In this document: positions 14,319 to 55,040 of the stretch, one piece after another
How positions within the stretch are numbered: position 1 is the stretch's first letter
How the letters are laid out: every line of letters begins with the position of its first letter
From: a phage
NCBI GenBank assembly: GCA_024682255.1
Contig: GCA_024682255.1_4716.1
Reading direction: 5' to 3' (one strand)
DNA length: 64,000 bases
The notes under the pieces: model-generated
Databases searched by the model: none
Told to the model about the DNA's origin: nothing
The model's input: only the letters and a program-made list of their open reading frames with translations
Program-made: the position numbers and the translations under genes

Positions 14319-14350
14319 CCCTCTCCCTTCCCTGATGGGTCGGGAGAGGG
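14319..14350. terminator. GGAGG-family hairpin CCCTCTCCC-TT-CCC-TGAT-GGG-TC-GGGAGAGGG between convergent genes
   Basis: Inverted repeat read directly; sits between stops at 14300 (+) and 14357 (-). Confidence 0.55.
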
Positions 14351-14356
14351 ATTATG

Positions 14357-15424
14357 TTAACCTAACGTCACTGTCGGTAAATCAGGATAAAGTTTCTTCA
14401 AGCCTGCCATCGTGGTGGTAGTCGTATAATTCTTACCCATCACAGCAAGAGATGCGTATTTCCTACTGCGGGAGAAAAGGGAATAAAACCCACTGGATGT
14501 TTCCATCCACATCGTGAGGAGTTCTGCATCCTTACCGTGATAGTTCGTTTTACCCCATCCGGGTTTAAACGCATCGGCAAAATCAATTAAACGCGAGGCT
14601 TCAGCGTCGTATTCTTTAAGGGTAAGGTACGATGGGATACGGTAGTTACGAAACAGCAACGTAATGAGTTCCGGAACAACGCTACGGGCACGTTCAGCTG
14701 TAATGAGTTCGGTGATCACAGCAGCTGTACGGAAATCGCCGTTAAGACCAACGCTGCTTAACGATTCCGCTAAAGTGGTTGCCATCGCCACTTTATCCTC
14801 CGCTGACCCGGAGTCATACAGACTACGTACATCGATATAGTTGCCTGCTAATGCGGCTTGACGAATCAACGACGTGACAACCGTTCGGTTCGTCTTATAG
14901 TCGTTGTAGTTGAATTCGGTTCGCGTTTTCCCTTGGTCGTCGAGATACCGATCAACGATTGTTGATAGTTTATAATACTCATCGCCCGACATCAGACTAT
15001 CGAGAAGCTTAACGTTTCCATCTTTATCGATAAGCTTCCCTAACGCACCATTGGATTGCTGGTTAATGGTGCTGTAAATCTGATCTTTTACTTGCGATAG
15101 AATGTTATCGGTTGACGATATATTCAGGCCGGTAACATCTTTGATCTTATTCATCAATGCGTTTTCATTCAGGGAGATTTTGCCTCCGCTGATATCGATG
15201 AACGAATTAAGATCGCTTATGGAAATCAGGTTTCCTGTTAACGCCGATAATGTACTATTGATACTGTTCGTGATACTGCTACGAAAACTGGTTAACGCAT
15301 CCGCCGCCGAAACAGCGGTACCGCTAACCGCTTTAAGGAGCGTATCACGCCCTGTCGAAAAATCGCTGGTGATGGTTTTGATCTTGGACGTATCTATACT
15401 CGGCAGTTTGTCGTAAAGACTCAT
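14357..15424 (-). CDS. hypothetical protein
   Basis: Track ORF 14357..15475 (GTG). Start moved to ATG 15422-15424 (MSLYDK..) with AGGAGG SD 5 nt upstream; the track N-terminus overlaps the upstream terminator. Confidence 0.65.
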   Translation of the reverse strand: MSLYDKLPSIDTSKIKTITSDFSTGRDTLLKAVSGTAVSAADALTSFRSSITNSINSTLSALTGNLISISDLNSFIDISGGKISLNENALMNKIKDVTGLNISSTDNILSQVKDQIYSTINQQSNGALGKLIDKDGNVKLLDSLMSGDEYYKLSTIVDRYLDDQGKTRTEFNYNDYKTNRTVVTSLIRQAALAGNYIDVRSLYDSGSAEDKVAMATTLAESLSSVGLNGDFRTAAVITELITAERARSVVPELITLLFRNYRIPSYLTLKEYDAEASRLIDFADAFKPGWGKTNYHGKDAELLTMWMETSSGFYSLFSRSRKYASLAVMGKNYTTTTTMAGLKKLYPDLPTVTLG

Positions 15425-15432
15425 CACGTCCT

Positions 15433-15490
15433 CCTGAAAAAGAAAAAAGAAATACGGCATAAAGCCTACCCACACAATGGTGGGTAGGCT
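15433..15490 (-). terminator. rho-independent-type terminator (11-bp stem AGCCTACCCAC/GTGGGTAGGCT followed by T-rich tract on minus strand)
   Basis: Hairpin ~15463-15490 followed on the minus strand by TTTATGCCGTATTTCTTTTTTCTTTTT; lies after the stop of 15507..16019. Confidence 0.6.
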
Positions 15491-15506
15491 AAGATTAACA
15501 TCGATG

Positions 15507-16019
15507 TTAAACTTCTTCGTTTTCTGAACCTAATGATTCAGCATCTGGATCGTCAACAGGAATTGTTGCGTCAAAATACCGTTTCGTATGCGTGGTTGTA
15601 TATCCTACGCTATCTGTGATAGAAATCGTAAACGTGACTTCCCTTGCACGGATTAAGCGTAGTTTATTCATGAAGTTACGGAACGGCATCGATCCCCGAT
15701 TCAACTCCTTAATGACGTTTCCCCGAATACTGGAAATGTCTTTATTCGTTTTATCAGGATGTCGTTTCTTCACATCACGCATGTGTCGGGTAATATACGA
15801 ATTGAGCTGATTTGCGCCGATCCCTCTCTCCGTATAAATCTGCAACAGGAACTCCGTAAGGAAATCCTGTCTACCCGTAGGCGTCCAGAAATTGTTACCG
15901 TGATTGTAGTTAGTCGCTCGTCCTCGATTGCTTTGAGGATTTTCATCATCGCTCTCGTCACGACGCTTAAGCGGATTAATGCGCGCGCGAAAAGAGACTT
16001 CATTATATTTATTTGTCAT
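15507..16019 (-). CDS. hypothetical protein
   Basis: Track ORF 15507..16064. Likely start is ATG 16017-16019, overlapping the upstream stop (ATGA coupling). Confidence 0.55.
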   Translation of the reverse strand: MTNKYNEVSFRARINPLKRRDESDDENPQSNRGRATNYNHGNNFWTPTGRQDFLTEFLLQIYTERGIGANQLNSYITRHMRDVKKRHPDKTNKDISSIRGNVIKELNRGSMPFRNFMNKLRLIRAREVTFTISITDSVGYTTTHTKRYFDATIPVDDPDAESLGSENEEV

Positions 16020-17293: not shown

Positions 17294-17984
17294 AATAACT
17301 GAACCATTTTATTCCAAAGAACCGCATGAACATCACAGGTGCGTTAGAAAGTTCGATTGCTTCGTAAAGTTTGTCATAAGCCAGATCGGAATCAGGGATG
17401 GTTTCGCTGATTCGTCTGGCTACAACCAGTACGTTACAAATCGGATTGTCTTCTAACAGCATCTGATTGGGGAGGTGCCAGCGTTTGAAATCGTAAAAGA
17501 ACATCGCATTATACGTCTTACGGATTTCTGACGGATGCAGTGTGGCCGGATGACGGTAAATAATTTCAACGCTATCTTGCGCACCGAGGTATTGCTGGAT
17601 GCCTTCTTTTAACGCCGTCGCTGCATCTCCCACAAATTCAAACGGGTACGTATTCACATGAACCGAAAAATCCGGTGCGGCAATCCCTGTCAAGCGGTCT
17701 TTCATGTAATCCGCGACCACGTAACATAATCGCCACATCAACTCCGTCGGAATGCATTTATCGAGAATGGTTTCATCGATATTTGCCAACGCACCCTTAA
17801 ACTCTTCGTAAGTGTAAGTAACACCCGCCTGCTTCTCCGGCTCCAGGTTATAGGGTCGGTAATGCCATTTCTTCCCCCACTTTCTGATAGCCTCCGGATC
17901 CAACGTTGTTGCTACCGCCATTTCGATATCAAGCAGCGCCTCGAGTTCTACGTACACCGTCACTAACGCCGCATTTCCAGTCAT
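17196..17984 (-). CDS. hypothetical protein
   Basis: Track ORF, 262 aa; ATGA overlap with upstream gene. Confidence 0.6.
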   Translation of the reverse strand: MTGNAALVTVYVELEALLDIEMAVATTLDPEAIRKWGKKWHYRPYNLEPEKQAGVTYTYEEFKGALANIDETILDKCIPTELMWRLCYVVADYMKDRLTGIAAPDFSVHVNTYPFEFVGDAATALKEGIQQYLGAQDSVEIIYRHPATLHPSEIRKTYNAMFFYDFKRWHLPNQMLLEDNPICNVLVVARRISETIPDSDLAYDKLYEAIELSNAPVMFMRFFGIKWFSYFIPPRVTPPKTDDLQPSSEIPPHEPTPSVEPF

Positions 17985-21691: not shown

Positions 21692-22534
21692 ATGCATAAA
21701 TTTACCATTCCTGAAGACCCGATTACACTGCAGACCCTTTGGGATTCACATCGTGCTTTATCAATGGAAGGCTTTGCGCAAGACTTCGCTTCACTTACCG
21801 CAGTAACGAATCTTCGCAGTATGTTTACCAATGGTAAGAAGTTTGTTACCGATTGGCTTAAGAAACGTGATGAGACGGTTTATCCTAAAGTTTTCGATGA
21901 CCTCGATACGATTTTTAGCAACAACGCTTACAGCGATCTCATTGGGTATCGTGCTTTTATTCCGAATGGTTTAAATGCGCCGATGTCAGATTATGTTGTT
22001 GCTTTAATCCAGAGTCTGGATAGCGTAATTGGCACCATCCTACCTGATTTGGATAAGTTGACCGTAACGTGCGCTAAAGCCGTCAACGACGTTAACTTCC
22101 GTCGCAGTAGTGGTATGGCTCAAACGCTACCTAAAAACGATCCAGAGAACGTTCTAGAGACGTTACGTGCGATGTTCAAACAAGGGACGGTAACACAGAC
22201 CACTGTAGGCCGTGCATATAAGAACGAAGATGATATTCGTCAGATCGGAAAAGATCTGGATGCTTCCCGTATCCGTGCGCTTGACGTTAATCCTAAAGAC
22301 GTGAAGAAGGCAATCGAACGTTTCATGGAAGTGGCTGACCGTTTAACCGAAATCCTGGTTCAAGACTACAATGAAGGTGCGGTGAGCAACGCGATGATTC
22401 GCGATATTAGCGACGCTATCTACCAAACAGCCAAGCAGGCTGAACTGTATGCGTTTCTCGTGAACGCTTTGGCTGAGGCGATCATCGCATATAACGACAC
22501 TTGGGACGCCGTTAAGAAGAACGCGAAAAAATAA
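21692..22534 (+). CDS. hypothetical protein
   Basis: Track ORF, 280 aa, ATG start; divergent from recA-like gene. Confidence 0.6.
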   Translation: MHKFTIPEDPITLQTLWDSHRALSMEGFAQDFASLTAVTNLRSMFTNGKKFVTDWLKKRDETVYPKVFDDLDTIFSNNAYSDLIGYRAFIPNGLNAPMSDYVVALIQSLDSVIGTILPDLDKLTVTCAKAVNDVNFRRSSGMAQTLPKNDPENVLETLRAMFKQGTVTQTTVGRAYKNEDDIRQIGKDLDASRIRALDVNPKDVKKAIERFMEVADRLTEILVQDYNEGAVSNAMIRDISDAIYQTAKQAELYAFLVNALAEAIIAYNDTWDAVKKNAKK

Positions 22535-22542: not shown

Positions 22543-22578
22543 CCCACCCTACTACCCCGTTAAGGGCGGTAGGGTGGG
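22543..22578. terminator. hairpin CCCACCCTAC ... GGGCGGTAGGGTGGG between convergent genes
   Basis: Imperfect ~12-bp GC-rich inverted repeat between stops at 22534 (+) and 22586 (-). Confidence 0.5.
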
Positions 22579-22585: not shown

Positions 22586-23017
22586 TTATTTGCCGTATAG
22601 ATGTACCACTCGTTGTGTCGTAGGAACGCAGACTCTTACCAGAAGTTTCTTAATCTCCTGACGAATCGTTGCTTTATCGTCATAATAAAGCCACGGTGGA
22701 ACGCGCTGCATTATGCACTGCACGGCTTCATCGTAGTTCGCCGTCTCATTAAGTAACGTCTCACTATCCAGATCTTTCCATGCAGTAATACCAAGTCGCG
22801 CAGCAAACATCAACGCTGAAACCGACTCAGCTATCTCCAATCGCTCATTCATATCCGCAAGACCTTTTAGCATGATGTAATTATCATCATACTGATGTAA
22901 AGTGCCATACAAACTTCCGAAGAGAAGTATACGTTTAGCTTTTGCGGTTAAGAGGAACGACAGGAGAGCGTGTTTCAACGGTTGTTTCTCACGTTCTACC
23001 TGTTCGACCATCACCAT
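22586..23017 (-). CDS. hypothetical protein (weak nucleotidyltransferase-like GS..G..DD motif)
   Basis: Track ORF, 143 aa; LLFGSLYGTLHQYDDNY. Confidence 0.5.
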   Translation of the reverse strand: MVMVEQVEREKQPLKHALLSFLLTAKAKRILLFGSLYGTLHQYDDNYIMLKGLADMNERLEIAESVSALMFAARLGITAWKDLDSETLLNETANYDEAVQCIMQRVPPWLYYDDKATIRQEIKKLLVRVCVPTTQRVVHLYGK

Positions 23018-25203: not shown

Positions 25204-26544
25204 ATGATTAGTATTTTTGGTTTTTATACGTACAAAGGGTACGCTAATAACCACCCAAAAACCACGGCGAAATTCGGTGAGTTCAGTCAGCACAGTGCTA
25301 CGTTCAGTCGCGAAATCGGCATCTATACCAACACGGCGTACGCACGTACGACCTTATTAGTGTTGAATGCCGAAAACGAAGCTGGTGAAGCACAAACGCT
25401 GAATGACGACACCGCAGGCCGCATTCTTCAGGTTGGTCAATGGTTGCTGGAAAAAGCCGCATCGGGCGAAATCCAGGAAGACCGAGACCAAGTTATCAGT
25501 TACCTAAAAGACGACTTCACAACGTATCTGGATTCTATCGACATCCCAACACCCACCACCGATGGTACAGTCTATCTACCGGCGTGGATCAGTTTCAAGA
25601 TAACCGCCACCGGCGATGTTGTCAAGATTTGGTTGTCTGATAGCGTATTCCAAAGTCAATATCCAAAATACGAATATGAAGTCGTTCCCCCTGTTCCTAA
25701 GGATCAGTTAGACACCTTCTTCGAAGATCTGGCAACATTGAAGAAACTGGTTGACAGTCGAAGCAGCGAGAAACTGACCGAAGAAATCAACGAGGTGCGC
25801 GACCAATTCCCAGACACACAATTGTGGACGAAAACCTATAAAGCGTACGATTACACCGACGATTCGAAATACATTAATACCGATTGGACGGTGATTATCT
25901 ACGGTGCAGCAGGTAACAACATTGATAATATCAAGGAGTTCCTGCAAAACTGGATTCTTAGCAATAGCACACACGGACGTCCAGACTGGGAAATCGTTCT
26001 GCCGGATCTTTTTATTCCGACAGAACACATCTTCATCCCGATCTGGAACCGCCACAGTGCGCCAGAGATGACCAATCAGGCACGTATCTATAGTCCTATC
26101 TTCGATGATTCGTTGATGGATACCTACCTGAAAAACTTTGCTGACGGTTACGGTGAAACCGCCGAAGTCCGTAAATCGCTTCAAGCGGTGCCGACGTTGT
26201 GGCGTTCGATCGGTTTCTTAAGTGTTGGTAACTCACGTAACCGTGACGGTAAACTTAAGTTCTACGATCGTTGGCCGCAATACGCGCTCATCAGCACAAC
26301 CAGCATTGATATTAACCGTATCGACGACGCGACACGTGAATTCATCACGTTCACTTACGAAATGCTGAAACTGGCAGAATCGCTCACCGAAGACGACCCG
26401 GTACCGTTGGGTTATAGTCGTGTTACGCGTGGTAGCAATAGCTTCTTAGCGAAAAGCCACAACGATGTTCAGTATCTCTTCTTGACAAAAGAAGCGTTCC
26501 TGAAGAAAATGCCGGATGAAGCCGACACGCCTGTTGGAGGTTGA
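25204..26544 (+). CDS. hypothetical protein
   Basis: Track ORF 25168..26544; second ATG (25204) has GAGGA SD. Confidence 0.6.
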   Translation: MISIFGFYTYKGYANNHPKTTAKFGEFSQHSATFSREIGIYTNTAYARTTLLVLNAENEAGEAQTLNDDTAGRILQVGQWLLEKAASGEIQEDRDQVISYLKDDFTTYLDSIDIPTPTTDGTVYLPAWISFKITATGDVVKIWLSDSVFQSQYPKYEYEVVPPVPKDQLDTFFEDLATLKKLVDSRSSEKLTEEINEVRDQFPDTQLWTKTYKAYDYTDDSKYINTDWTVIIYGAAGNNIDNIKEFLQNWILSNSTHGRPDWEIVLPDLFIPTEHIFIPIWNRHSAPEMTNQARIYSPIFDDSLMDTYLKNFADGYGETAEVRKSLQAVPTLWRSIGFLSVGNSRNRDGKLKFYDRWPQYALISTTSIDINRIDDATREFITFTYEMLKLAESLTEDDPVPLGYSRVTRGSNSFLAKSHNDVQYLFLTKEAFLKKMPDEADTPVGG

Positions 26545-27173
26545 TTATGGCTGTAACACGCATGACGCCAAGTCCCGGTGCGGTCGGGGTATTCACAGTA
26601 TCAGCGCCGTTTACCGTTGGTGCGTCGACGCTATATACCGTTACAGCGTTGCGAAGATTTAGCGAAGTCATCGGTAGTGGAATCGACCTATTTACGGAAC
26701 TGTACGAACCGTTATCGATAGACAAATCCACTTTCGAAGCGCATCTCGAAGCGAATGCTTATCTCGTCACGTTGCAACCGGATTATGGTGCGCCCGTACT
26801 GGTACCCGACACGTATATCACGTCGTACCCAAAGAACGATTCCTTGCGGTATCGTCGCATTATTCTGGGTATCGATTTCGGGCCTCTTCCTCCCGGTCTT
26901 GACCTTTCGTATTTAACAACAATATTGAAAGGTAAGGCCAGTGATATTCTTGGTGTCGAACCTGAAGTTAAAACGATGGAAATCACTCTCGATGATACCG
27001 TTACTCAGGGACAACATCAGATAAACGAAGCCCGTCGTCAGGCTGCGATAAAAGAGCGGGATACCATTTACGCACGCTGTGAAACGCAAGAGAAGCAGAT
27101 AACGGCTTTACTTGCAACCCAAAAGCAACTTATCAAATTGCTTCAAGACGCCGGTATCAATCCGACACCTTAA
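26541..27173 (+). CDS. hypothetical protein
   Basis: Track ORF, 210 aa; start overlaps upstream stop. Confidence 0.55.
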   Translation: MIMAVTRMTPSPGAVGVFTVSAPFTVGASTLYTVTALRRFSEVIGSGIDLFTELYEPLSIDKSTFEAHLEANAYLVTLQPDYGAPVLVPDTYITSYPKNDSLRYRRIILGIDFGPLPPGLDLSYLTTILKGKASDILGVEPEVKTMEITLDDTVTQGQHQINEARRQAAIKERDTIYARCETQEKQITALLATQKQLIKLLQDAGINPTP

Positions 27174-27179: not shown

Positions 27180-27211
27180 CCCTCCTCCTTCCCTGTTGGG
27201 TTGGAGGAGGG
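27180..27211. repeat. GGAGG-family hairpin repeat (reverse orientation copy): CCCTCCTCC-TT-CCC-TGTT-GGG-TT-GGAGGAGGG
   Basis: Reverse complement is identical to the core of the copies at ~43048 and ~55009. Confidence 0.6.
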
Positions 27212-27225
27212 TTATGCCGTCAAGC

Positions 27226-27275
27226 AAAAAAAAAAAATGATAGTCACAGGCTCTCCAATGAAGGAGAGCCGTGAC
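27226..27275 (-). terminator. rho-independent-type terminator for gene 27283..27984 (13-bp stem GTCACGGCTCTCC + T12 on minus strand)
   Basis: Hairpin ~27243-27275 directly after the stop, followed on the minus strand by a 12-nt T run (A12 on plus strand, ~27226-27237). Confidence 0.6.
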
Positions 27276-27282: not shown

Positions 27283-27984
27283 TTAGGATGCGGATAATCT
27301 CGCGTACTTCTGACGAACATGGTTCTTACGGCGAACTTCGTCGTCCTCGTCACGCCATTCGAGGTAAGCAACGAATCGACGTAACTGCGCCGCCGTCATC
27401 GTTGACGAGCGGTCTTCTACGTCCAGAACAACGTAACGAACATCACCAACATCATCGCAATCAACGTAACTGAATACCAAAAGACCATCACCATATTCAA
27501 CGATGGTAACTTCGAATCGTTTATCGAACAAATAAAACAGTTCCGATTCAATGATCATTGGAATGACGCATAAATCGGCACGATTGAGGATTTCCATCAT
27601 CACCCGTAACGCGCGAGGAGTATGACGAGCGAACTGGTCGTTAAAACGTTGTTTCATCGCTTGTTCCACGCCATCTGTTTTTGTTCCAAACCACGGACGT
27701 ACTACAGATTTCGGTGGTGTAAGACGAAAGCGATATGCTTGTATAAACAACAGAATATCAGCGACGTTGGGAAATTCTTCCTGGTCTTCGTATATCTTGC
27801 GGATAATATCCGGAATCGTAACCATCAAGTATTTCTTATCGCCTCCCACTTTCTCGAGATTAGCAATATGTCCTTCTACCACCGGCTGGTAAACGAAATT
27901 ATACCAATGACGGTATCTTTCGGTACGTTGGTAGTTTGGGATAAAATTAAGAATAATACTCACTGCGCGTTTTAACGGGTTCAT
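27283..27984 (-). CDS. hypothetical protein
   Basis: Track ORF, 233 aa. Confidence 0.6.
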   Translation of the reverse strand: MNPLKRAVSIILNFIPNYQRTERYRHWYNFVYQPVVEGHIANLEKVGGDKKYLMVTIPDIIRKIYEDQEEFPNVADILLFIQAYRFRLTPPKSVVRPWFGTKTDGVEQAMKQRFNDQFARHTPRALRVMMEILNRADLCVIPMIIESELFYLFDKRFEVTIVEYGDGLLVFSYVDCDDVGDVRYVVLDVEDRSSTMTAAQLRRFVAYLEWRDEDDEVRRKNHVRQKYARLSAS

Positions 27985-28999: not shown

Positions 29000-29052
29000 A
29001 AGAAAAAACGATATAAAGCAAGGTCCTCTGATATCAGAGGACCTTGGATCAA

Positions 29053-29757: not shown

Positions 29758-29859
29758 AATGATGGAATAAGTTAAATACCGCAACCGCCGCTAATTTTAT
29801 AGGCTTTTAGCCTAAACCAATCATCTTCGGAATCATCATCTTTGAAACAGGAACCTATC

Positions 29860-30636
29860 ATGGAAAAAGTATTTGTTTGTAAGTTGTTTACCAACGGCAA
29901 TAGCCAACCAATGTATCTGACCGATCCTGTTCTAGGTAATCGGAACAGTACCGTATTCAAAGAAGCTTTCGAATACGCTAAAAATAAAGCCGTGAGAACA
30001 CTGACGTCCGATGACTGTATCAATGGTATCACGTGGGCAGAGTTATTAGGTGATGCTGTTAGACACTTCGTTCGGGATGCAAGAAAACAGGAAATCGGTC
30101 TCACGACTATCGTTGTGCATGAAAACGCAGAAATTTTATCAAACGTTTTGGTTGATTTTAATGACGTTTGCGTGTTTAATCCAGAGAACACGTTTGAACA
30201 ATACCTTACTGCCCTGAACAACCAACTCGGTAAAGATATTCATCCCGAATTCGCCAAGTTAACGTATCAGGTACTTTTTGATAACGTCGATCCAAATACG
30301 AAGATCAATACCAGCACGTCACACCTGGTAAAGAAATACGGATCGGTTTTGGATAATCCATTAAAAGAACAAGAGCCTACTGGGGTTAGGGCGGTACATC
30401 ACAACCTCGTCGTTAAATCTGATGGATGCGATGAACATTACGCTATGATAAACGATGAAAACAATTACCGTTTAAGTCAAGCGATTGGTGTTCTACGCTA
30501 TACCGAACCCACTGTTGTAGACGATTATACATCGACAACAACACACACCACGTGTTTCATTTTCATCTATCCCAATGAAAGTGTATACATTACTGACTGC
30601 TATGGCAATACCGTAGATAGCTTACGTCGTTATTAA
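29860..30636 (+). CDS. hypothetical protein
   Basis: Track ORF 29842..30636 (TTG); in-frame ATG at 29860 preferred. Confidence 0.6.
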   Translation: MEKVFVCKLFTNGNSQPMYLTDPVLGNRNSTVFKEAFEYAKNKAVRTLTSDDCINGITWAELLGDAVRHFVRDARKQEIGLTTIVVHENAEILSNVLVDFNDVCVFNPENTFEQYLTALNNQLGKDIHPEFAKLTYQVLFDNVDPNTKINTSTSHLVKKYGSVLDNPLKEQEPTGVRAVHHNLVVKSDGCDEHYAMINDENNYRLSQAIGVLRYTEPTVVDDYTSTTTHTTCFIFIYPNESVYITDCYGNTVDSLRRY

Positions 30637-38429: not shown

Positions 38430-38819
38430 TTAACGCGTTGCGTTCTGGATGATTTCTTTTCCGATCTTAACCAAAGCGGGTATCTGCACAGCGGTTGCGC
38501 CTCGATGACGAAACGCGGTCGTTAACGCAGTATCGATACTCACCGCACGTCCATGAAGACGATCGAAATAGACTTGAGTGATTGCGGTAGCGTAATCCTT
38601 TCGCTGTTTCTTGGTTTGGCTCAACAGCGCCGCACTACGACTAACGATGAAGTAAGCGATTAAGAAGAACGCCGCTGACCGCGAACCAGGTAGAAAACCT
38701 TGTCGCTTAGGAAGCATCTCACAATCGCGAACAGAATTATCGTTCGCGAGCTCTTCCATGTCAACACGGCATAATTTTGCATAGGTGTGGAGATAGTGGG
38801 TAAAAGTTGAATTTAACAT
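38430..38819 (-). CDS. hypothetical protein (one predicted TM segment)
   Basis: Track ORF, 129 aa. Confidence 0.5.
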   Translation of the reverse strand: MLNSTFTHYLHTYAKLCRVDMEELANDNSVRDCEMLPKRQGFLPGSRSAAFFLIAYFIVSRSAALLSQTKKQRKDYATAITQVYFDRLHGRAVSIDTALTTAFRHRGATAVQIPALVKIGKEIIQNATR

Positions 38820-41087: not shown

Positions 41088-41441
41088 TTAAGGTTTAGGT
41101 TCCGTTTTGTGTTGTGCGAGTAGTATGTTGATCTGCTCCCGTTGTTCTTTTAAGCATGCGGGAAGCTGGTCTTCCCGTACCGTTCCGATTTCCAACGTGA
41201 TGTACCAGCGTTGTTCGGAAGCCTGCCATTGAAAACTGCTCTGTAAACGAAGGATGCTAGGATCACGTACCTTGTTTGCGCTGTAGCGGTTGAACCAAAC
41301 CAGGTAAGCGGCTTTTCCTTCCTCGTCGGCAACGTAACGCTGCACGCTGTTCTTGCCTTTGTTCTCGTATCCTGTTGTACGTATCATGCGAACGTTTCTC
41401 CTGCAGCGTGTTGCGGATGGCGTAGCATGGTAGCATCCCAT
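41088..41441 (-). CDS. hypothetical protein
   Basis: Track ORF, 117 aa; N-terminus overlaps upstream gene, start uncertain. Confidence 0.4.
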   Translation of the reverse strand: MGCYHATPSATRCRRNVRMIRTTGYENKGKNSVQRYVADEEGKAAYLVWFNRYSANKVRDPSILRLQSSFQWQASEQRWYITLEIGTVREDQLPACLKEQREQINILLAQHKTEPKP

Positions 41442-42166
41442 TGTACGAACCGGCTCCGGCTTACCCGCATCATGATGGATTCATCGTCAAGCCCTGGTTG
41501 CACAACCGGTAACCAACGTTCGTTAAGCACCTTCGCTTCAACGCGTTTCTTGCGTGGGTTGTAACGCACCCCGCTAACCCAAGCGAATCCAAGTGGATGC
41601 ACAACCCGTGGATAATACATGCGAAGCAATTGATGCATCCGATCCGTTGCCTCCAAGCTCGCATCCGCCATGTAAGGTTTCACCATGGTAAGCTTTTTGG
41701 TATAATACGTACCAACGGTATGGTTACGCCAACTTGGCAAGGCATGATCCCCTTCTCTCAGTTTGCTATCCGGGTTCATCGGCCAGACCTGCTGTTTACC
41801 GGCCAGCATCGCGTACTGCCGATCAACGCAACGAACCTGATCGGCGAACAATGGATCCAGGATATCATCCACCGCACCCTTATTGCGATAACCGTGATGT
41901 ACCACCAACCTGCTTGCGCTCATCCGTTGCGGATGCTGGCTCTTATGCGCATACAGTCCTCCGTCACCGCGAGCGTCGTAAAGATAACCGCATGCGCCAC
42001 GCCATATCACCTTGCCTACGGTTCTCTCGTCTTCAAGCAGCATCGTCGGTCCATCAAGCAAATTGGTGAACCATTGCACCTTCACGCATTCCGCTTGAAC
42101 GCACTCAGGTAATGCCTGATACTCTTTTTGGGTGTATAAGGTATCAAAAATGATTTCATCGTTCAT
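41384..42166 (-). CDS. hypothetical protein
   Basis: Track ORF, 260 aa; ATG with GAGGAA SD. Confidence 0.6.
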   Translation of the reverse strand: MNDEIIFDTLYTQKEYQALPECVQAECVKVQWFTNLLDGPTMLLEDERTVGKVIWRGACGYLYDARGDGGLYAHKSQHPQRMSASRLVVHHGYRNKGAVDDILDPLFADQVRCVDRQYAMLAGKQQVWPMNPDSKLREGDHALPSWRNHTVGTYYTKKLTMVKPYMADASLEATDRMHQLLRMYYPRVVHPLGFAWVSGVRYNPRKKRVEAKVLNERWLPVVQPGLDDESIMMRVSRSRFVQWDATMLRHPQHAAGETFA

Positions 42167-43047
42167 CTAAAAAGTTCCTCTGTTTCACGTTAATTAAACA
42201 ACGTATTGATTTCTGGTAACGATAACAATCCTAGTGATGTTATCAAAAAGGTAACGCTTACGCGTCGCGTTCATGATGCCATGCATCATGAAGGTAATAT
42301 AGCCGTGAAAGGATTTGTGTTACAGAAAGGGTTTTGTTGTTTTTAAGAAGAGATGGATTTAGAAGAGGTGTTGCAAGCAAGGAAGGTAAACGAGGATAGG
42401 TATTTTGATTTAAGTAAGTAAGATGTTATCTGTATTCGTTAAAAATGTATTGTCTAAGTTATCTTGTTTATCTTAGGTTATGTCTTATTGTTTAATCGTT
42501 TAATATTTTTATCTAAGTAGGTTTAACTCTATCTTGTTTGTATATTTAAATTAATTTAAAGTAGATCAATAAGCTTATCTTCAAAACAATGGATAACATG
42601 TGTTTACTACCTTAACGGTAACACATGTCATCTGTGCATTCACTCCGTTATCACTTCGTTACATGCTTATCAACGTTTTGTCTTCACAAAACGTTCAACT
42701 CAAAAAACCATTTGTGATACTCTTCTTCACGTTGTTCATCAGAGTATCTCGTCTATACTCATTGCATTCGTATACGACATAACCGTTATACGCTAACGCT
42801 ACGCTTATAGCTTGATAACTCTAAGGATAAAAACATAAACTCGCTTCGCTCGTTTAGTTTTTCTTTTTCTTAGAGTTATCCTGTTGCTCGTCTCTAAAGG
42901 ACTTCGCTCCTCCCCCGTCCCCCGAAGGGGCCGAGGTCGTGGAAATTTTACTTTCCAAATACATTTACAACATCTGTAAACTTTTACTCCAGGTACTTAA
43001 TCTTATCATTAGAAATTATAAAAGAGAAGAATAAACACAAACATAAA
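42167..43047. other. AT-rich gene-free region (~0.9 kb) with TTATCTT-type repeats
   Basis: No ORF with SD. Repeated TTATCTT/TTATCTA units (~42459-42540); promoter-like motif copy 3 at ~42248-42310; hairpin AACGTTTTG-tcttca-CAAAACGTT (~42672-42695); CCCC-UUCG-GGGG hairpin on minus strand (~42915-42930). Confidence 0.5.
42248..42310. promoter_or_regulatory. promoter-like motif copy 3: AAGGTAACGCTTACG ... CATCATGAAGGTAATATAGCCGTGAAA
   Basis: Same bipartite motif as copy 1; ~127 nt from the ATG of 41384..42166 (-). Confidence 0.45.
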
Positions 43048-43082
43048 CCTTCCTCCAACCCAACAGGGAAGGAGGAAGGGGG
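43048..43082 (-). terminator. GGAGG-family hairpin (CCTTCCTCC-AA-CCC-AACA-GGG-AA-GGAGGAAGG) downstream of 43094..43993
   Basis: Near-identical to the copy at ~55009, including the AACATAA flank; followed on the minus strand by T-rich sequence. Confidence 0.6.
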
Positions 43083-43093: not shown

Positions 43094-43993
43094 TTATACG
43101 GGAGCGTTAACGTTATAACCGAATACTGCTTTACCGTAGGTGTGAGTACCGTCAGCTAACGACAGCACCAGCACATTGCCGTACGTAGCGTTAACGCCCT
43201 TGTCGGTAGACTCGAGGGTATCACCGTTATAGACAAAGGTAGCTGTTTGCAGATTGGCTTTCAGTTCATTGATGATCTCATCACTTACACCGGTCTGCTC
43301 TTTGATCAGGGTGGTCAGGTTACCTGCCAGGCTTTCATCGATCTTGGTTTCGTTACTGGTAATCGCCTGTAAACCTACGCCGTAGATGCTGAAGTCTAAC
43401 GGATAGGTTAACAGACGCGCTGACGTTTTGGTACCATCGCCTTCATCAACGTAGGTTAAGTTACCCAGGTTGGTAACCTTGATGATGTTAGCCAGATCCA
43501 GCGTGGTGTTATAAACTTTAACTTGAACCGAGCCATACCACGCCAACGAATCTTCTTTGGCTTCCAGGGTGATCGTCTGGATACCATGCTGGTCGAAGGT
43601 AACCGGCGTAGCTAACGTTTCGGCTTTGATGTCTTTCGCTTTATCCAGGAACTTCTCACCGGAAGGCGTGATCATACCGTAGCGTTGAGCTACAAGGTCA
43701 ACCACGTCACCAATAGTGGTGTTCGCATTAACGTTAACACGTACAGCGATTTTCTGGAACCACTTAGCCAGATCCAGACGATGGTAGGTAACATCGCGTT
43801 CATTGAAGTAAGGGGTACCTTCACCTGGGCTAAGCGTTAAAGTTGCTTCTGGAGCAGAAGGATTCTTTTCTTTAAGAACGTATTTAAGGTCGGTGTATTT
43901 GAAGCTGGCACCAGTGTCGGCGTTGAGTTTGTTAATCTCATCAACGATAAGTTGCCAAGGTGTTTTTAAAGTAAGCGATACTTGAGCTGTCAT
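43094..43993 (-). CDS. paralog-family protein (YxRLDL ... LAWYGSV motif family), function unknown
   Basis: Track ORF, 299 aa; shares TYHRLDLAKWF and LAWYGSVQV motifs with 44135..44677, 55050..55955, 56872..57723 and 57734..58681. Confidence 0.6.
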   Translation of the reverse strand: MTAQVSLTLKTPWQLIVDEINKLNADTGASFKYTDLKYVLKEKNPSAPEATLTLSPGEGTPYFNERDVTYHRLDLAKWFQKIAVRVNVNANTTIGDVVDLVAQRYGMITPSGEKFLDKAKDIKAETLATPVTFDQHGIQTITLEAKEDSLAWYGSVQVKVYNTTLDLANIIKVTNLGNLTYVDEGDGTKTSARLLTYPLDFSIYGVGLQAITSNETKIDESLAGNLTTLIKEQTGVSDEIINELKANLQTATFVYNGDTLESTDKGVNATYGNVLVLSLADGTHTYGKAVFGYNVNAPV

Positions 43994-44134
43994 TTTCTAC
44001 CTCTATGGTTGTTACATCACTCTCAAAAGATGTAAGTGTTTACAGAAATTAATATATTTTATATTAGTGTGAATAGTATGGAGAACGACTCCGAATCTCC
44101 TTTTCGACCATCAAAAATCAGAGGACACATAATC

Positions 44135-44677
44135 ATGGACTTAAACTTTAACAAAGCAGCGAAATCCCTTCTGCTTGATCTTATCAACACCAAAGCAACC
44201 CGCACACTGTCTGAAGAAGAACTGCAGTTCGGTACTCCGGCGACATCTTCCGAACATGGAAAGAACACCGTTATTCAGCTGGACGCTGCGCCTGAAGCAG
44301 CTAACCTGCAGGGTAGTCAGCAGTTCTACTACGATCGTCTGGCTCTGTCCGAAGTTTTCGCTGAAGTAACCGGCGATGTTACTTTCGAACTGCCGCACGG
44401 CACTGACAGCATTAAGGCTTCTGAACTGGTAAGCAAGCTGGTCACCAAATTCGGCCTGGCTTCCCTGACCGGTGAAATCAAAGAAGAAACCTTCCAGCTG
44501 TCTGCAGGTACTGTTGGTCGGGTAACCCTGACTGCGATCGAGGGTGGCCTGGTATATACCGGCACTCTGCAGGTTGCACTGACCTACGCAGCTGCACCGA
44601 AAGACCAACTGGCAACCGTTCTGGCGAATAACGTAGCTGATGGCTTCGTGAAACCGACCGTTAGCGCTGTTGGCTAA
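44135..44677 (+). CDS. paralog-family protein, function unknown
   Basis: Track ORF 44036..44677 (GTG); ATG 44135 with GAGGA SD preferred; motifs FYYDRLALSEVF and LVYTGTLQV. Confidence 0.55.
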   Translation: MDLNFNKAAKSLLLDLINTKATRTLSEEELQFGTPATSSEHGKNTVIQLDAAPEAANLQGSQQFYYDRLALSEVFAEVTGDVTFELPHGTDSIKASELVSKLVTKFGLASLTGEIKEETFQLSAGTVGRVTLTAIEGGLVYTGTLQVALTYAAAPKDQLATVLANNVADGFVKPTVSAVG

Positions 44678-44876: not shown

Positions 44877-44908
44877 CCCCTCCTCATCCGTTATTGGGTG
44901 GGGAGGGG
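44877..44908. terminator. degenerate GGAGG-family hairpin CCCCTCCTCATCCG-TTAT-TGGGTGGGGAGGGG
   Basis: Imperfect inverted repeat in the 44678-44971 intergenic region. Confidence 0.4.
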
Positions 44909-44971: not shown

Positions 44972-45607
44972 TTACTCAACACTGAACCCGTTCAAACGAA
45001 TAGCTTCATAACGCTTACGTTCACGACGTTTACGTGCCTGCCAACCGTAAATGAACTTCTCGTCTTTCTCACGACGTTCAGCTAATTCGATGTAGTAAGT
45101 GCTCTGCATATCCAGCATCGCGTCGATGAGATAATCTTTACCGGTTTCTCCGCGTTTAGCGATGTAAGCATCAATAGCTGCCAGTGATTTGGGACCCATT
45201 GCACCATCAGCGTCAATATCTTTCCAGTAAGTTTGACGGTTGTTCATGACGTTGAGATAACGCTGGAGGTTCTTAACCGCAACGGTTTTGCCTGCGTTGA
45301 TACCCAGGTCAAAGAGACGGTCAGCTAAAAACACAGAACGTTTCATGACTTCGTCAAGCTTCATCTTATCCCAGAAGTGGGTCTTGTAAATAAAGAACGC
45401 CATGTCGTAAGTAAGGTCACGCATGTTACCGTTCCAGCCGAATTTCGTTTTCAGCGTGGTTTTGTACTGATCGGCGAGTGCTTTCGTGATCCCCATCATG
45501 GTTTCATTTCCACTATCGTCAGGATCGTTAACATATCCTGCTTCGATACTGGTTTTGTCACGAATGATGAATTCGCAGGTAAAATCTTTTTCAGTAATCT
45601 TAGCCAT
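44972..45607 (-). CDS. GH108-family muramidase-like protein (candidate endolysin or virion-associated lysin)
   Basis: Track ORF, 211 aa; N-terminal EAGYVNDPDDSGNETMMGIT matches the GH108 signature EGGYxxDPxDxGGxTxxGIT; ATG with GAGGAG SD. Confidence 0.65.
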   Translation of the reverse strand: MAKITEKDFTCEFIIRDKTSIEAGYVNDPDDSGNETMMGITKALADQYKTTLKTKFGWNGNMRDLTYDMAFFIYKTHFWDKMKLDEVMKRSVFLADRLFDLGINAGKTVAVKNLQRYLNVMNNRQTYWKDIDADGAMGPKSLAAIDAYIAKRGETGKDYLIDAMLDMQSTYYIELAERREKDEKFIYGWQARKRRERKRYEAIRLNGFSVE

Positions 45608-47795: not shown

Positions 47796-50390
47796 TTATA
47801 ACGTGACTGTACCTAATTTGGTTGTCTTATTGAGATTAATGACAGAGATCTGGGTATCGCTGGTCGTAATCGTTCCGATATTAACGCGCTGTCCTTTATC
47901 ATCTTCTTGCTTGTAGATGGTTAACTCCAGTTCTAACTGGTCGCCATTAGGAACAACGGAAACGTACCATGTTTTATTACCTGGTGAGCTATTATAGTCT
48001 TTTAGGTTATAATGGCCTTTAGGTAAGGTCATGACCTTACCGGCAAACAAGCAAGTGATGTCTTCGTTGATGTAGATATCGTAACCGGAAGCAGCAACGA
48101 CCGTAGAAACCATGTAGACATGTTTGACGGTACCTGCGAGGTATTCGGCTACGCTTGGCCCATATGCTCTGAATACCTGTCCGCCATTGGATAAACGGTA
48201 CGCTTCCCCAAGGTCAACGTACCCCAGACCCCATACCGGATGGACGTTGTAACGACGTCCGCTGCTGGCCAAATACTCATAAAGCTCATCTACCGATAAC
48301 CCAACCCACGCACCACTGGCGTTCTTAGCACCACGGAATTGAAAATCGTTTGCGTTTCCTGGAGTAGCAACGCGCACGGACATCGCCCCGGCGATTAACC
48401 AGCCATCAGCGCATTTACGATACCCTAATGGTCCCCACGCCCCCAGAGTGTTATCAATGTTATTGATTTGGTCCCGAGGCGTGTAAGTTACCGTTGTGAC
48501 GACCCCCGTTACGGTAATGTTCCCTTCCCGAGCGCTAGTCGTTACTTCAGACGTCATGATAGCCGCCTTCCTGGAGACAGGATCGTACACCGATATGAAC
48601 ATCAAGCAGGGGGCCCCTGTGGACGCTGGAGGAACCACGATAGAGCCGCGTATAACGGAGTATCTCTCAAGCTTCGGCGACGTGTAGGTATCCCAACAAA
48701 GTTTGGCCGCTCTGTCGAGTTCTGCCTGCGTGATGCTTATCGATGCCCCCTTTAAGGCTAACGTATCAGGGTCGACCTCAACCCTGCTGCTTAATCTCCC
48801 TTCCTGTAACCAGCTACCAGTCACTATCGTCTGGTCGTCGCTCATGTGAATTGTCGCGAAACGTTCGCTCACTGAACCGCCTACGTGGACGCGACTGGTT
48901 GGCGGGAATCCCGTCACATCGACCACGCTGTTCTTATAGCGATAACTCAAATCCCAATCAGTGGTTATTAACCGCTTTTCGAAATTGCTCTGACCCCCTG
49001 GGATGCGGGATAAGACATAGACCTTGTTCTTCGCCGTGAAGCCAACGAAGCCGTGTGGACCACAGGACCCAACAACGCGGTCCATGATGTTAATCCAGTT
49101 CCCCACCTCGTACGCGGATATTGGGGTGAGTTTCGCAAGTTCGTCGAAGACATTACCAGCGTAGTCACCAATGCGATACGATCGAACCATCGGCGAGGCC
49201 AGGTTATCATTCACACAGCTGGTAACCAGACCGTCCTCGCGAATGACCATGTTCCCGGTAAGGTTGCCCCCACCCCATGCCCAGAATCCGTCTTTATAAT
49301 CACGGTCACGAGTTGACATCGTACAAGGGCCACGAAAGGACACCGAACCATCGGAGTTCACTTGTAATGACGGCGTTCCAGCATTGGGACTTAATGTCCA
49401 TTGCTTCGTATCCAGGTTCAAATCGACGTACCAGATCGTTGTCCCCTGGTCGGCGATATTCACGGTACTGTTAGTGTACCATGCCGTCGTGCAGTAGATT
49501 CGCGCAATGTTACCTCTTACAACAGCGTAATTTCGAACACCCGCACGAATAGGGATAAACGTCGTTAATTGACTAGGGTACGCTGTATGGTTTAACACTT
49601 CCCAGAAAAGAATGTGGTCGAGGTTGGTTTTCGTCGTTCCCTCAAAAATCTTTCCACTAAACCCGGTTTCTTTGGTGAACTGTACAGCCGCACCATTTTT
49701 AATGTCCGATAACATACAGGTATGTACATCGAGCCCGTGTTTCCCTTCATATTCCCACCAGACTAACAGGTACACTTTGTTTTTGTAGACGAACGTACTA
49801 CAGCGCGCCATGCTGTTGGTAATACCCTCTACCGACCCGGTACACATAGCGGCGACATGCATCTCTACGTTGAATGTGCCGTTAGTCAGAACGATGTAGG
49901 GCTGTGTGTTCTCGTCGTTTGCGTCCATCGCGATACCCATCATCACGCCGTGGTTATGACACCAGACCGATTGTGGGATTTTAGGTAGTGCTGTAGGGTT
50001 GTACTGGCGACTGGTACCTATGGCGGTATCGAGCAACCCTTCACCATTGTTTTTACAGATAGCGTAATACACCCCGTTTTTCATGCTGTTGGATGCAGAG
50101 CGAAGGATGGAAACACTCCCGTCTGCTTCCTGACAGATTCCGTAGGTACGACGTTCGGTCATGGCTATCGCGCCATCAGCTGACCCTTCGATGGCGAGAG
50201 GGAAGTAACTTTGATCGCCAATTTGTTCGATATCGGTTACGTCAATATCAATGTACTTTTCCATCTCGGTGTTGAACTCTGCAGTGCTGTACGCGCCGAG
50301 ATCGCCAGCCTTTAACCCTGTTGGATTGCTTCTGCTAGCGATGCGCTCGGTAACACTGGTCACCAGTTCGCTAAATTTTTTCATTGCCAT
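47796..50390 (-). CDS. large tail-associated protein (putative tail fibre/tailspike), function unknown
   Basis: Track ORF, 864 aa, ATG start; embedded in fibre operon; no catalytic motif recognised. Confidence 0.45.
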   Translation of the reverse strand: MAMKKFSELVTSVTERIASRSNPTGLKAGDLGAYSTAEFNTEMEKYIDIDVTDIEQIGDQSYFPLAIEGSADGAIAMTERRTYGICQEADGSVSILRSASNSMKNGVYYAICKNNGEGLLDTAIGTSRQYNPTALPKIPQSVWCHNHGVMMGIAMDANDENTQPYIVLTNGTFNVEMHVAAMCTGSVEGITNSMARCSTFVYKNKVYLLVWWEYEGKHGLDVHTCMLSDIKNGAAVQFTKETGFSGKIFEGTTKTNLDHILFWEVLNHTAYPSQLTTFIPIRAGVRNYAVVRGNIARIYCTTAWYTNSTVNIADQGTTIWYVDLNLDTKQWTLSPNAGTPSLQVNSDGSVSFRGPCTMSTRDRDYKDGFWAWGGGNLTGNMVIREDGLVTSCVNDNLASPMVRSYRIGDYAGNVFDELAKLTPISAYEVGNWINIMDRVVGSCGPHGFVGFTAKNKVYVLSRIPGGQSNFEKRLITTDWDLSYRYKNSVVDVTGFPPTSRVHVGGSVSERFATIHMSDDQTIVTGSWLQEGRLSSRVEVDPDTLALKGASISITQAELDRAAKLCWDTYTSPKLERYSVIRGSIVVPPASTGAPCLMFISVYDPVSRKAAIMTSEVTTSAREGNITVTGVVTTVTYTPRDQINNIDNTLGAWGPLGYRKCADGWLIAGAMSVRVATPGNANDFQFRGAKNASGAWVGLSVDELYEYLASSGRRYNVHPVWGLGYVDLGEAYRLSNGGQVFRAYGPSVAEYLAGTVKHVYMVSTVVAASGYDIYINEDITCLFAGKVMTLPKGHYNLKDYNSSPGNKTWYVSVVPNGDQLELELTIYKQEDDKGQRVNIGTITTSDTQISVINLNKTTKLGTVTL

Positions 50391-53613: not shown

Positions 53614-53645
53614 GATGCGCCCTTTACAAGTTGTTAGTAAGTATG

Positions 53646-53663
53646 GGATACCCTGGGGTATCC
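53646..53663. promoter_or_regulatory. 18-bp palindrome GGATACCC-TG-GGGTATCC in divergent promoter region
   Basis: Perfect 8-bp inverted arms with 2-nt spacer, between 51460..53613 (-) start and 53718 (+) start; followed by AAATATTACTG resembling the TATATTAC core. Confidence 0.4.
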
Positions 53664-53717
53664 TGTGTTAACAGCGGTAAAATATTACTGTAACTATAAA
53701 ATAAGGGGGCCTCTCCC

Positions 53718-54998
53718 ATGTATACATTGGTAAAAACTTACGGGTTACCCGTAGGTTCTGGCACGGCCTGGACAGCGCTTGAGGCGGGTGAAAGTGTCCT
53801 GAGTACGTTGTTCTCAACGTATCAAAAACTCAAGATCCAGGTCCATGAAAGCTACGCTGACCAGCAACAAGTTATTGATCTGTACACATTTCAATCCGAG
53901 CTTCAAAACAGCAGTGATACGCTCAATGCGTGGTTGAAAGCGAAATCGGATGCACATACCAACCTTCGAGGACAGCCTGGTGAGCTGTCGATTAAAACCC
54001 ACAAGCTTTATTGTCATGACGCTATTACGGTAGGCTTTCTCCCTAAAGTCGGTAATAGCGGTTATCATCCGAGCAATGCGATCCCTGAGTCGGAACGCAC
54101 TGATATCCTGTTGACGAAAGCGAATACGAATTACGAAAATATCGGCAAACACTGCTTGTTCACCGTAGGCGGTTATGTTCATCCTCACGTCTACGGTAAA
54201 GACGTTGGTGTCTATATCCTGGGTGGGTTCGAGACAGCACAGCGTAGCCAAGAAAACGATATCGGCATGATTGATTTTAGCCGTATCGGGAGTTTGGAAA
54301 TTCATGCTATCACAGAAGAGATGATTGCTGATTCCACGAAGCTCTTGCCGTATAAGGACGAGATGTACTTGCGGTTACCGCGCAAGGTCGCCGAAGATGA
54401 AACCGTTGCGCTGGTGTTCGGGGGATATTTACATCTTCTTGACGATTGTTACACGATCGTTAGCGACACGACAGCAAAAATAAACTGCATTAACATGTTT
54501 CTCTATGAAAGATACTTCCGTTCCCGCAAATACCTTGATCTAACATCTCTTGGTATTCTGTTGAACGAAGAAGACCCACAGTCCGACATTGTTGCCAATC
54601 GTTTATTGTCGGATAAAGCATTAAAAGCGTGGGTGACGCATCCTTGCAGTTTCTGGGTGTATATCAAAGCAACATCGATTCGGGTTACGCAAGAACCTTT
54701 ACCACGAAGTGGTGTACCAGGACAGTATTTCTTAGGTAAGAAACCGGAAGGATTGATTCGGGCCGATCTTGGTGAGTTACCGGCTTACGTGCAGACCTAT
54801 GAAAAACCGTTATGGGTACTTCACTCGCGCTGGGGACTTCGTAAGAACATGTTGTTTGAAAATACGTTGTACAAACATACCCGCGTTAAGCGGCTTAACG
54901 ATACGCCTTATCTTCACCAGGTCTGGTTGGAAACGCATGCGACGTTGCAGACAGTACACAAGCTCGAATTGATCGATTCCAGTCAGAAAAACAAATAA
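53718..54998 (+). CDS. hypothetical protein
   Basis: Track ORF, 426 aa, ATG start. Confidence 0.6.
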   Translation: MYTLVKTYGLPVGSGTAWTALEAGESVLSTLFSTYQKLKIQVHESYADQQQVIDLYTFQSELQNSSDTLNAWLKAKSDAHTNLRGQPGELSIKTHKLYCHDAITVGFLPKVGNSGYHPSNAIPESERTDILLTKANTNYENIGKHCLFTVGGYVHPHVYGKDVGVYILGGFETAQRSQENDIGMIDFSRIGSLEIHAITEEMIADSTKLLPYKDEMYLRLPRKVAEDETVALVFGGYLHLLDDCYTIVSDTTAKINCINMFLYERYFRSRKYLDLTSLGILLNEEDPQSDIVANRLLSDKALKAWVTHPCSFWVYIKATSIRVTQEPLPRSGVPGQYFLGKKPEGLIRADLGELPAYVQTYEKPLWVLHSRWGLRKNMLFENTLYKHTRVKRLNDTPYLHQVWLETHATLQTVHKLELIDSSQKNK

Positions 54999-55008
54999 CC
55001 AAACATAA

Positions 55009-55040
55009 CCCTCCTCCAACCCAACAGGGAAGGAGGAGGG
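55009..55040. terminator. GGAGG-family hairpin CCCTCCTCC-AA-CCC-AACA-GGG-AA-GGAGGAGGG between convergent genes
   Basis: Perfect 9-bp outer and 3-bp inner stems; near-identical to the copies at ~43048 and ~27180 (reverse complement). Confidence 0.6.

Follow-up and report, generated by a model that had tools for sequence, protein, structure and literature searches.

Recurrent hairpins at gene ends of a Goslar-like jumbo phage as probable transcription terminators of a chimallivirus family

Why does a phage place nearly the same, very stable hairpin again and again between its genes? This question is raised by a contig of 64,000 nucleotides (GCA_024682255.1_4716.1 of NCBI GenBank assembly GCA_024682255.1; "the window" below refers to this whole stretch), for which an original prediction had described seven intergenic hairpins with GGAGG stems between positions 14,319 and 55,040. 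We argue here that these hairpins are most probably transcription terminators, that is 3'-end-forming signals, of a Goslar-like chimallivirus, the formation of 3' ends being judged by analogy, and that they belong to a published chimallivirus terminator family as its Goslar-lineage member instead of constituting a new kind of element. Directly supported are their anatomy, their enrichment, their placement at gene ends, the directionality of a short box behind the stem, the greater stability of the RNA made from the terminating strand and the match to the terminators of phage phiKZ.

All seven hairpins are present where they had been placed, and an eighth member at 22543-22578 had been missed. 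In every one of the eight, pyrimidines make up the 5' arm (CCYCC) and purines the 3' arm (GGRGG). The architecture that the original prediction ascribed to all of its sites is realized exactly, as 9 bp, a 2x2 internal loop, CCC-N4-GGG and 9 bp, at five of them (14319-14350, 27180-27211, 31285-31316, 43048-43079 and 55009-55040), whereas the remaining two are variants: 38380-38414 with a 10-bp stem, a TA/CG interruption and GCC-N5-GGC, and 44877-44908 with a 13-bp uninterrupted stem containing G.U pairs. The 2x2 interruption is conserved and non-palindromic, being either AA/AA (UU/UU on the other strand) or UA/CG. The near-identity of some copies is also real, in that ~42-43 nt at 55009, CATAACCCTCCTCCAACCCAACAGGGAAGGAGGAGGGAATATG, recur unchanged in the reverse complement of 27180, and 43048 departs from them through compensated stem changes. 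The pattern CCTCC-N8-24-GGAGG produces seven matches at five window sites against 0.36 expected, a number reached in 0 of 100 shuffles, and RNA folding of the eight hairpins gives ΔG values of -23.5 to -30.9 kcal/mol with z-scores of -3.9 to -7.2. As to their location, which had been said to be mostly between convergent genes or directly after a stop codon, seven hairpins separate convergent genes, and the remaining one closely follows a minus-strand gene; none overlaps coding sequence, and all convergent gaps of the window contain such a hairpin.

Over 96% of its length, a 4-kb stretch of the window shares 91.7% identity with Escherichia phage vB_EcoM_Goslar, the sole matching phage for that stretch in the phage collection searched and a 237-kb nucleus-forming jumbo phage (chimallivirus) that infects E. 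coli. A window position corresponds approximately to the Goslar position plus 27,263, so that the first 27 kb of the window represent the end of the Goslar record; and since the window is locally 92-99% identical to Goslar and two IMG/VR contigs, it must derive from a fourth, distinct genome of this lineage. Goslar-like chimalliviruses transcribe their genome by their own multisubunit RNA polymerases within the phage nucleus, and RNA polymerase subunits of the phiKZ type are annotated in Goslar. Matches to sigma-70-type promoters at window positions 14000-56000 number 30 against 34.2, and 23 against 27.4, in shuffled sequence; matches at or below chance are consistent with a phage that transcribes with its own polymerases, independently of that of the host.

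When the whole Goslar genome was searched for hairpins whose 5' arm is made up of pyrimidines only and whose 3' arm consists of purines, 34 such hairpins were found, the reverse polarity being rare. All 34 are intergenic in a genome of which non-coding DNA makes up 7.4%, so the genome-wide intergenic enrichment expected of the motif does exist. By type of gap they fall into 17 or 18 convergent, about 15 tandem minus-strand and one divergent site.

The most informative feature of the family is the flank, rather than the stem or the loop. On the strand with the gene ending upstream, a box (T)TATG, mostly continued by C/T-Y-G-T, begins 1-4 nt behind the stem, as exemplified by TTATGCTGT, TTATGCCGT and TATGGCGT; window flanks in which TTAT is followed by KYYGT are, besides TTATGCCGT, also AATATGCTGT, ATATGCCGT, TTTATGCGGT and TTTATGTTTG. 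In Goslar, TATG occurs no more than 10 nt after the stem in 39 of 51 terminating flanks and in 2 of 17 non-terminating ones, the background being 2.8% (Fisher p = 3e-6). Convergent sites carry the box on both sides and tandem sites on one side only. Given that the box follows the stem only in the gene-ending direction, the AACATAA flank, to which the original prediction had drawn attention, is the box of the opposite strand, i.e. the reverse complement of the directional TTATG(T/C)YGT. Hence, of the specific recognition that had been proposed for loop and flank together, the part concerning the flank holds, whereas the loop, which is variable or flipped among orthologues, is not a conserved recognition feature. 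The two boxes of a convergent site are able to pair with each other; the one-sided boxes of tandem sites, however, imply that mutual pairing is not the reason for their conservation.

The same box is also found on hairpins with unrelated stems, both in the window and at many annotated Goslar terminators. At about 15458-15490 on the minus strand, after a minus-strand gene, AGCCTACCCAC...GTGGGTAGGCT is followed by TTATGCCGT (ΔG -20.7, z -5.5), and the different stem of this hairpin indicates that the box, and not the GGAGG stem, is the common element. At about 30642-30675 on the plus strand, after gene 29842-30636(+), AAGCCTGTCC-TTCG-GGGCAGGCTT is followed by TTATGCTGTTA; its orthologue in Goslar (3508-3527) is an annotated terminator. 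A third hairpin, 29006-29046 on the minus strand, consists of CAAGGTCCTCTGATATCAGAGGACCTTG followed by CTTTATATCGTTTT, representing the TTATATCGT variant of the box that also occurs in phiKZ.

That the stems are built from a GGAGG resembling a Shine-Dalgarno (SD) sequence, as the original prediction remarked, is true but common to phiKZ as well. It nevertheless brings up translational control, in which the purine arm and the ATG of the box would serve as ribosome-binding site and start codon (GGAGG-N5-7-ATG), with the hairpin masking the SD of a downstream gene or mini-ORF (ORF, open reading frame). Indeed, the 3' arm is a perfect SD with the box ATG 5-9 nt behind it, and at four of the 15 tandem Goslar sites (49776, 84366, 117670 and 166927; L007, L008 and L009) this ATG opens an ORF of 62-278 codons and, in at least three of the four, is where the annotation starts the following gene, 3 nt behind the stem. 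There the purine arm would be the SD, and we may be looking at either real stop-restart coupling or an artefact of gene calling; gene callers favour GGAGG plus ATG, so that annotated starts may be artefactual. At convergent sites, however, no more than short antisense ORFs (median 17 codons) begin at the ATG, the box also takes the forms TTATA and TTATT in phiKZ and in the window, and it recurs on hairpins without an SD-like arm, all of which makes control of translation an extremely unlikely primary function.

The element appears to be read as RNA. Of the 15 one-directional Goslar sites, 14 give a more stable RNA from the terminating strand than from the opposite one, and the G.U pairs of 44877 give -29.1 kcal/mol on the plus strand versus -20.5 on the minus strand, with the box on the plus strand only. 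In an alignment of paralogues 100% of the cells pair and double changes are seen in 5 of 12 stem pairs, a count that is partly circular because the copies had been chosen for pairing; all double changes convert C-G to U-A, such that the 5' arm stays pyrimidine. A comparison of orthologues, for which two to four related genomes were available at each locus, shows the stems to be conserved, and at 44877 compensatory changes are seen. These observations bear on the idea that the palindromes act at the level of DNA, as a protein-binding site, an origin, a packaging signal or a late-promoter element with a TATG consensus. The arms are near-perfect inverted repeats, and TATG is the core of the phiKZ late promoters used by its non-virion RNA polymerase (nvRNAP), with +1 at the G (PMC4666361), read in the non-template strand by a beta-like subunit (PMC12809450). 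Yet the fact that G.U pairs and the choice of loop stabilize the terminating-strand RNA in 14 of 15 sites is a signature of the RNA level, a promoter at a convergent site would direct antisense transcription of the gene opposite, no hairpin lies upstream of the TATG in the best-studied late promoter, P119L, and the G of the box can be replaced by A or T. We thus hold a DNA-level element to be the least probable of all the explanations considered.

The closest counterparts have been described in two chimalliviruses of Pseudomonas. ONT-cappable-seq of phiKZ mapped 133 termination sites, of which 61 share one motif, 5'-BCCYCCCCHWWDGGGRRGGBYTTATKYYGT-3', in which TTAT comes after a stem-loop; six regions between convergent genes proved to be bidirectional (Putzeys et al. 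2024, microLife, PMC10914365). In 201phi2-1, 132 sites were mapped, 15 of them bidirectional, with a motif A (n=59) that according to its authors resembles the phiKZ motif (PMC11512511). When we looked in the literature for earlier descriptions of TTAT terminators, just these two papers were found.

The window elements and the phiKZ motif have in common the CCYCC/GGRGG arms, the TTAT-KYYGT box right after the stem, the CATAA on the 5' side of bidirectional sites and the location at gene ends, some of them between convergent genes, all in a chimallivirus with its own RNA polymerases. They differ in that phiKZ stems are simple (7-9 bp, loops of 4-6 nt), whereas window and Goslar stems have 9-10 bp, a 2x2 interruption (AA/AA, UU/UU or UA/CG), a 3-bp clamp and a tetraloop, which leaves the latter about 10 kcal/mol more stable; the G after TTAT is also more constant in the window and Goslar than in phiKZ. 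Moreover, 3' ends have been mapped in phiKZ, whereas the Goslar-lineage elements are known from sequence alone. Motif A of 201phi2-1 likewise represents sequence-conserved chimallivirus terminators, 15 of them bidirectional, with elongated A/B stems, but host genus and phage genus differ and the likeness rests on the published description rather than on a base-by-base comparison. As for bacterial intrinsic terminators, these too place a GC-rich hairpin after the stop codon and let one palindrome serve both strands at convergent junctions; in contrast to the Rho-independent type, however, the window elements have no U-tract, only 2-3 T followed by the conserved ATGYYGT, and the polymerase concerned is presumably the phage enzyme and not that of the host.

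Reading phiKZ DNA directly, we found the arrangement CATAA-GCCCTCCC-loop-GGGAGGGC-TTATGCTGTTAA, for example GACATAATGCCCTCCCGCAATGGGAGGGCTTATGCTGTTAA, and 50 kb of phiKZ contain 24 occurrences of the purine arm plus TTAT versus 1.25 expected. A MAFFT alignment of 17 phiKZ copies did not bring the stems into register and gave no consensus structure, and a covariance model (R1) was therefore built in the opposite direction, from window and Goslar copies only. It recovers the window members 22543 and 38380, on which it had not been trained, and over positions 1-50 kb of phiKZ it produces 17 strand hits at E < 0.01, of which those checked against the annotation are all located at gene ends; in T4 it finds one AT-rich locus. 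Neither the published 30-nt phiKZ consensus nor its 17-nt 3' half is matched exactly anywhere in the window, owing to the greater length of the window stems. In arm composition, flanking box, placement and covariance model the hairpins thus resemble the phiKZ terminators, which by analogy favours the role as terminators or RNA 3'-end elements that had been suggested for them at the outset.

Could the hairpins instead stabilize or process RNA 3' ends, with an exonuclease trimming the transcript back to the hairpin or an endonuclease cutting at UUAUG, and the hairpin then protecting the mRNA? Their extreme stability (-23 to -31 kcal/mol), the absence of a U-tract and the conserved single-stranded box, which could be a site for a nuclease or another protein, would all fit, and 3'-end mapping in phiKZ cannot by itself tell release from trimming. 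The phiKZ sites were, however, accepted only if the read coverage of 5'-enriched primary transcripts fell across them by 20% or more (PMC10914365), and a two-reporter terminator trap in uninfected cells showed that eight 201phi2-1 terminators stop transcription (PMC11512511). The presence of a hairpin at every convergent junction, too, agrees with the avoidance of collisions. Stabilization or processing as the main function is therefore, in our view, unlikely.

Several points nonetheless weigh against termination. The phiKZ 3' ends obtained by ONT-cappable-seq could in part be stable processed ends and not sites of release, and the phiKZ instances we compared were chosen by pattern and not taken from the published table of sites. 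When model R1 was run on the first 50 kb of two further chimalliviruses, SPN3US and Ea35-70, no hit with E < 0.05 came up, hence the signal is not universal in the family. Our literature search, a broad one, returned no transcript-end mapping for Goslar-like phages. In the window itself, copies 38380 and 44877 carry just a weak box of the TTATA type, and a scan for a hairpin plus T-run flags none of the eight loci: with only 2-3 T in the flanks, and hence fewer than the five or more U directly after the hairpin that mark a canonical intrinsic terminator, they are all missed by a classical terminator search. Similarly, in the Goslar record the program ARNold picked out as "putative transcriptional terminator" only five of the 34 copies, in addition to the orthologue of 22543.

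A different kind of question is how the copies have stayed so alike. Orthologous loops read AACA, GTAA, AATA (one copy) or TGAT, and at two loci the whole inner module has been flipped between genomes with unchanged flanks. The flipped module comprises 14 nt (AA-CCC-loop-GGG-AA) and is inverted between window 14328-14341 and Goslar 224393-224406, and between L024 8907-8920 and Goslar 48116-48129; the outer arms, too, are unchanged at these places. Candidate causes are inversion within the palindrome, gene conversion between copies, or selection, and the copies do seem to exchange sequence or to invert within the palindrome. In Goslar, an identical inner module, AACCCGTAAGGGAA, occurs in nine copies, and 13 of 15 inner modules have the same orientation on the plus strand (binomial p = 0.007). 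It is in this light that one must consider mobile or recombinogenic palindromes, comparable to repetitive extragenic palindromic (REP) sequences, miniature inverted-repeat transposable elements (MITEs) or the cassettes of T4-type phages, which would have spread by recombination and would affect transcription only secondarily. The promoter/stem-loop (PeSL) cassettes of T4-type phages and bacterial REP are indeed multi-copy, near-identical intergenic palindromes that apparently exchange sequence between copies. Loci 28 kb apart sharing their ~42-43 nt stretch in opposite orientation, the nine Goslar copies with one module, the flips between orthologues and a module at 14319 that is nearer to another locus than to its own orthologue would all be in keeping with such an origin. 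However, presence/absence polymorphism is not seen at any of the eight loci, each being filled in all the related genomes available; no target-site duplications were noticed and nothing is conserved beyond the box. Unlike PeSL or REP, the family has no promoter part and no insertion polymorphism, and its strict placement at gene ends with a box whose side follows gene direction would not be expected of a selfish repeat. Nor does the composite core form a family in 185,579 bacterial and archaeal genomes, which yielded seven scattered single hits. We consider a mobile repeat very unlikely. An origin of the core in a host genome was likewise rejected; several of the seven hits are ordinary A-tract/T-tract terminators.

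Look-alikes do exist elsewhere. Three mutually related viral contigs outside the Goslar group (IMG/VR, 30-49 kb) have one such hairpin each (L014 9651-9674, L025 519-542 and L029 3248-3271), reading GG-CCTCC-AA-CCC-N4-GGG-AA-GGAGG-CC with TTTTTATGCTGC on one side; with a single copy per contig they do not make up a family. In SPN3US (L041 46627-46664) a CCCTCTCC...GGAGAGGG hairpin without the TTATG box lies between the convergent genes gp219 and gp218, and the pyrimidine/purine stem may be more widespread among chimalliviruses than the box.

How would such a terminator work? In the model that we favour, it would be made of two parts. The first is a very stable RNA hairpin, rich in pyrimidines in its 5' arm (CCYCC) and in purines in its 3' arm (GGRGG), with a stem lengthened in the Goslar lineage to 9-10 bp and followed by the 2x2 interruption, the CCC/GGG clamp and the tetraloop. 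The second, a short directional box, (T)TAT(G/A)YYGT, beginning 1-4 nt after the stem, would replace the classical U-tract and slow or destabilize the elongating polymerase, perhaps because the hybrid over UUAU is weak and a Y-G step follows ~7-10 nt beyond the stem, in the geometry of hairpin-dependent pausing known for multisubunit polymerases in general. As the arms form an inverted repeat, the same kind of hairpin would arise from both strands, and boxes on both sides of a convergent site would stop transcription from both directions, those of tandem sites from one.

It is also conceivable that the box is a DNA signal, in that the TATG pocket of the beta-like nvRNAP subunit recaptures TATG during elongation and pauses the enzyme once the hairpin emerges, making one element of four bases serve a sigma-less multisubunit RNA polymerase for both start and stop; the pyrimidine-5'/purine-3' polarity of the arms would then be part of the same polymerase-specific code. 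This we keep as improbable, because P119L has no hairpin and the box tolerates A or T for G. For the former reason an overlap of terminator and late promoter was downgraded as well. ChmC, a nucleus-associated RNA-binding protein, was rejected as a reader of the hairpin: its binding by enhanced crosslinking and immunoprecipitation (eCLIP) is near start codons and shows no motif.

Turning to the individual hairpins, 14319-14350, between 12159-14300(+) and 14357-15475(-), is bidirectional and reads CCCTCTCCC-TT-CCC-TGAT-GGG-TC-GGGAGAGGG, with the boxes ATTATGTTAAC on the plus strand (TATG 14353-14356) and GGGTTTATGCGGT on the minus strand (TATG 14313-14310); the covariance model scores it at E 1e-17 (+) and 3e-15 (-), with ΔG -26.4 and z -4.0. 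The eighth member, 22543-22578, is CCCACCCTAC-TA-CCC-CGTTAA-GGG-CG-GTAGGGTGGG between the convergent genes 21692-22534(+) and 22586-23017(-), flanked by TTATTATGTTATT on the minus strand and the variant TTTATTTGCCGT on the plus strand; the model gives E 3e-5 on the minus strand, ΔG is -27.3, and its Goslar orthologue at 232609-232644 is the annotated putative terminator mentioned above.

The bidirectional hairpin 27180-27211, CCCTCCTCC-TT-CCC-TGTT-GGG-TT-GGAGGAGGG, lies between 26541-27173(+) and 27283-27984(-); its plus flank TTATGCCGT (27212-27220) fits the phiKZ TTATKYYGT exactly, its minus flank is AATATGTTAAGG, and ΔG is -29.3 with z -6.3. Its reverse-complement twin, 55009-55040, CCCTCCTCC-AA-CCC-AACA-GGG-AA-GGAGGAGGG, is bidirectional as well and lies between 53718-54998(+) and 55050-55955(-), with the flanks AATATGCTGTTA (+) and TTATGTTTGG (-), a model E of 1e-18, ΔG of -26.0 (+) and -30.9 (-), and an annotated putative terminator as its orthologue in Goslar (27746-27777). 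Beside the 27180 hairpin, at window 27224-27275, there is an A12 run together with a second hairpin, GTCACAGGCTCTCC-AATGAA-GGAGAGCCGTGAC, which on the minus strand amounts to a classical hairpin-plus-T12 intrinsic terminator for gene 27283-27984, so that this gene has two serial terminators of different types. The GenBank record of Goslar is linearized within this gap.

Hairpin 31285-31316, bidirectional between 30879-31280(+) and 31334-31975(-), reads CATCCTCCC-AA-CCC-GTAA-GGG-AA-GGGAGGATG with the flanks AAATATGCCGTT (+) and GTTTTTATGCGCT (-), ΔG -23.5 and z -6.8. The variant 38380-38414, CCTCCTTCCC-TA-GCC-ATCAA-GGC-CG-GGGAAGGAGG, is placed between 37270-38358(+) and 38430-38819(-); its weaker boxes are ATTATAG (+) and TTGTATAG (-), the model E is 2e-4, ΔG -29.6 and z -6.6, and the orthologue in Goslar (11186-11220) is an annotated putative terminator. 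The other variant, 44877-44908, assigned to the plus strand and situated between 44036-44677(+) and 44972-45607(-), has the 13-bp stem CCCCTCCTCATCC-GTTATT-GGGTGGGGAGGGG followed by TCTTATACGT, no box on the minus strand, and an annotated putative terminator as orthologue in Goslar (17603-17637). The only unidirectional copy of the exact plan, 43048-43079 (-), CCTTCCTCC-AA-CCC-AACA-GGG-AA-GGAGGAAGG, starts 15 nt past the stop codon of gene 43094-43993(-) and has a box, TTTATGTTTGTG, on its minus flank only (TATG 43045-43042); model E values are 1e-17 (-) and 3e-11 (+), and ΔG is -24.5. This hairpin and the start of the minus-strand gene 41384-42166 bound a stretch of ~880 nt, 42167-43047 (854 nt in Goslar), without a convincing ORF and with several stable hairpins (~42247, ~42589 and ~42895), which could be a small RNA, a long leader or small genes.

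An Rfam scan of the window matched no curated family to the hairpins at gathering score and returned a single match elsewhere, a group I intron (RF00028) at 1718-2180 on the minus strand (57.9 bits, E 4e-12), between the long minus-strand ORFs 1-1471 and 2162-3646. Its Goslar orthologue is annotated as Intron_gpI (211817-212245) beside a gene similar to phiKZ ORF179, and a second Goslar group I intron, 169269-169645, is found within the region of an RNA polymerase beta-prime-like gene.

Taken together, these findings extend the terminator signal of phiKZ and 201phi2-1 to an E. coli chimallivirus lineage with almost no nucleotide similarity to them. The census supplies about 34 candidate terminators for the annotation of Goslar, a main E. 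coli model of the phage nucleus, and the elements could serve synthetic biology as strong bidirectional insulators. Above all, a signal as compact as a hairpin plus TTATGYYGT, without any U-tract, could offer a handle on how the non-canonical RNA polymerases of jumbo phages terminate transcription.

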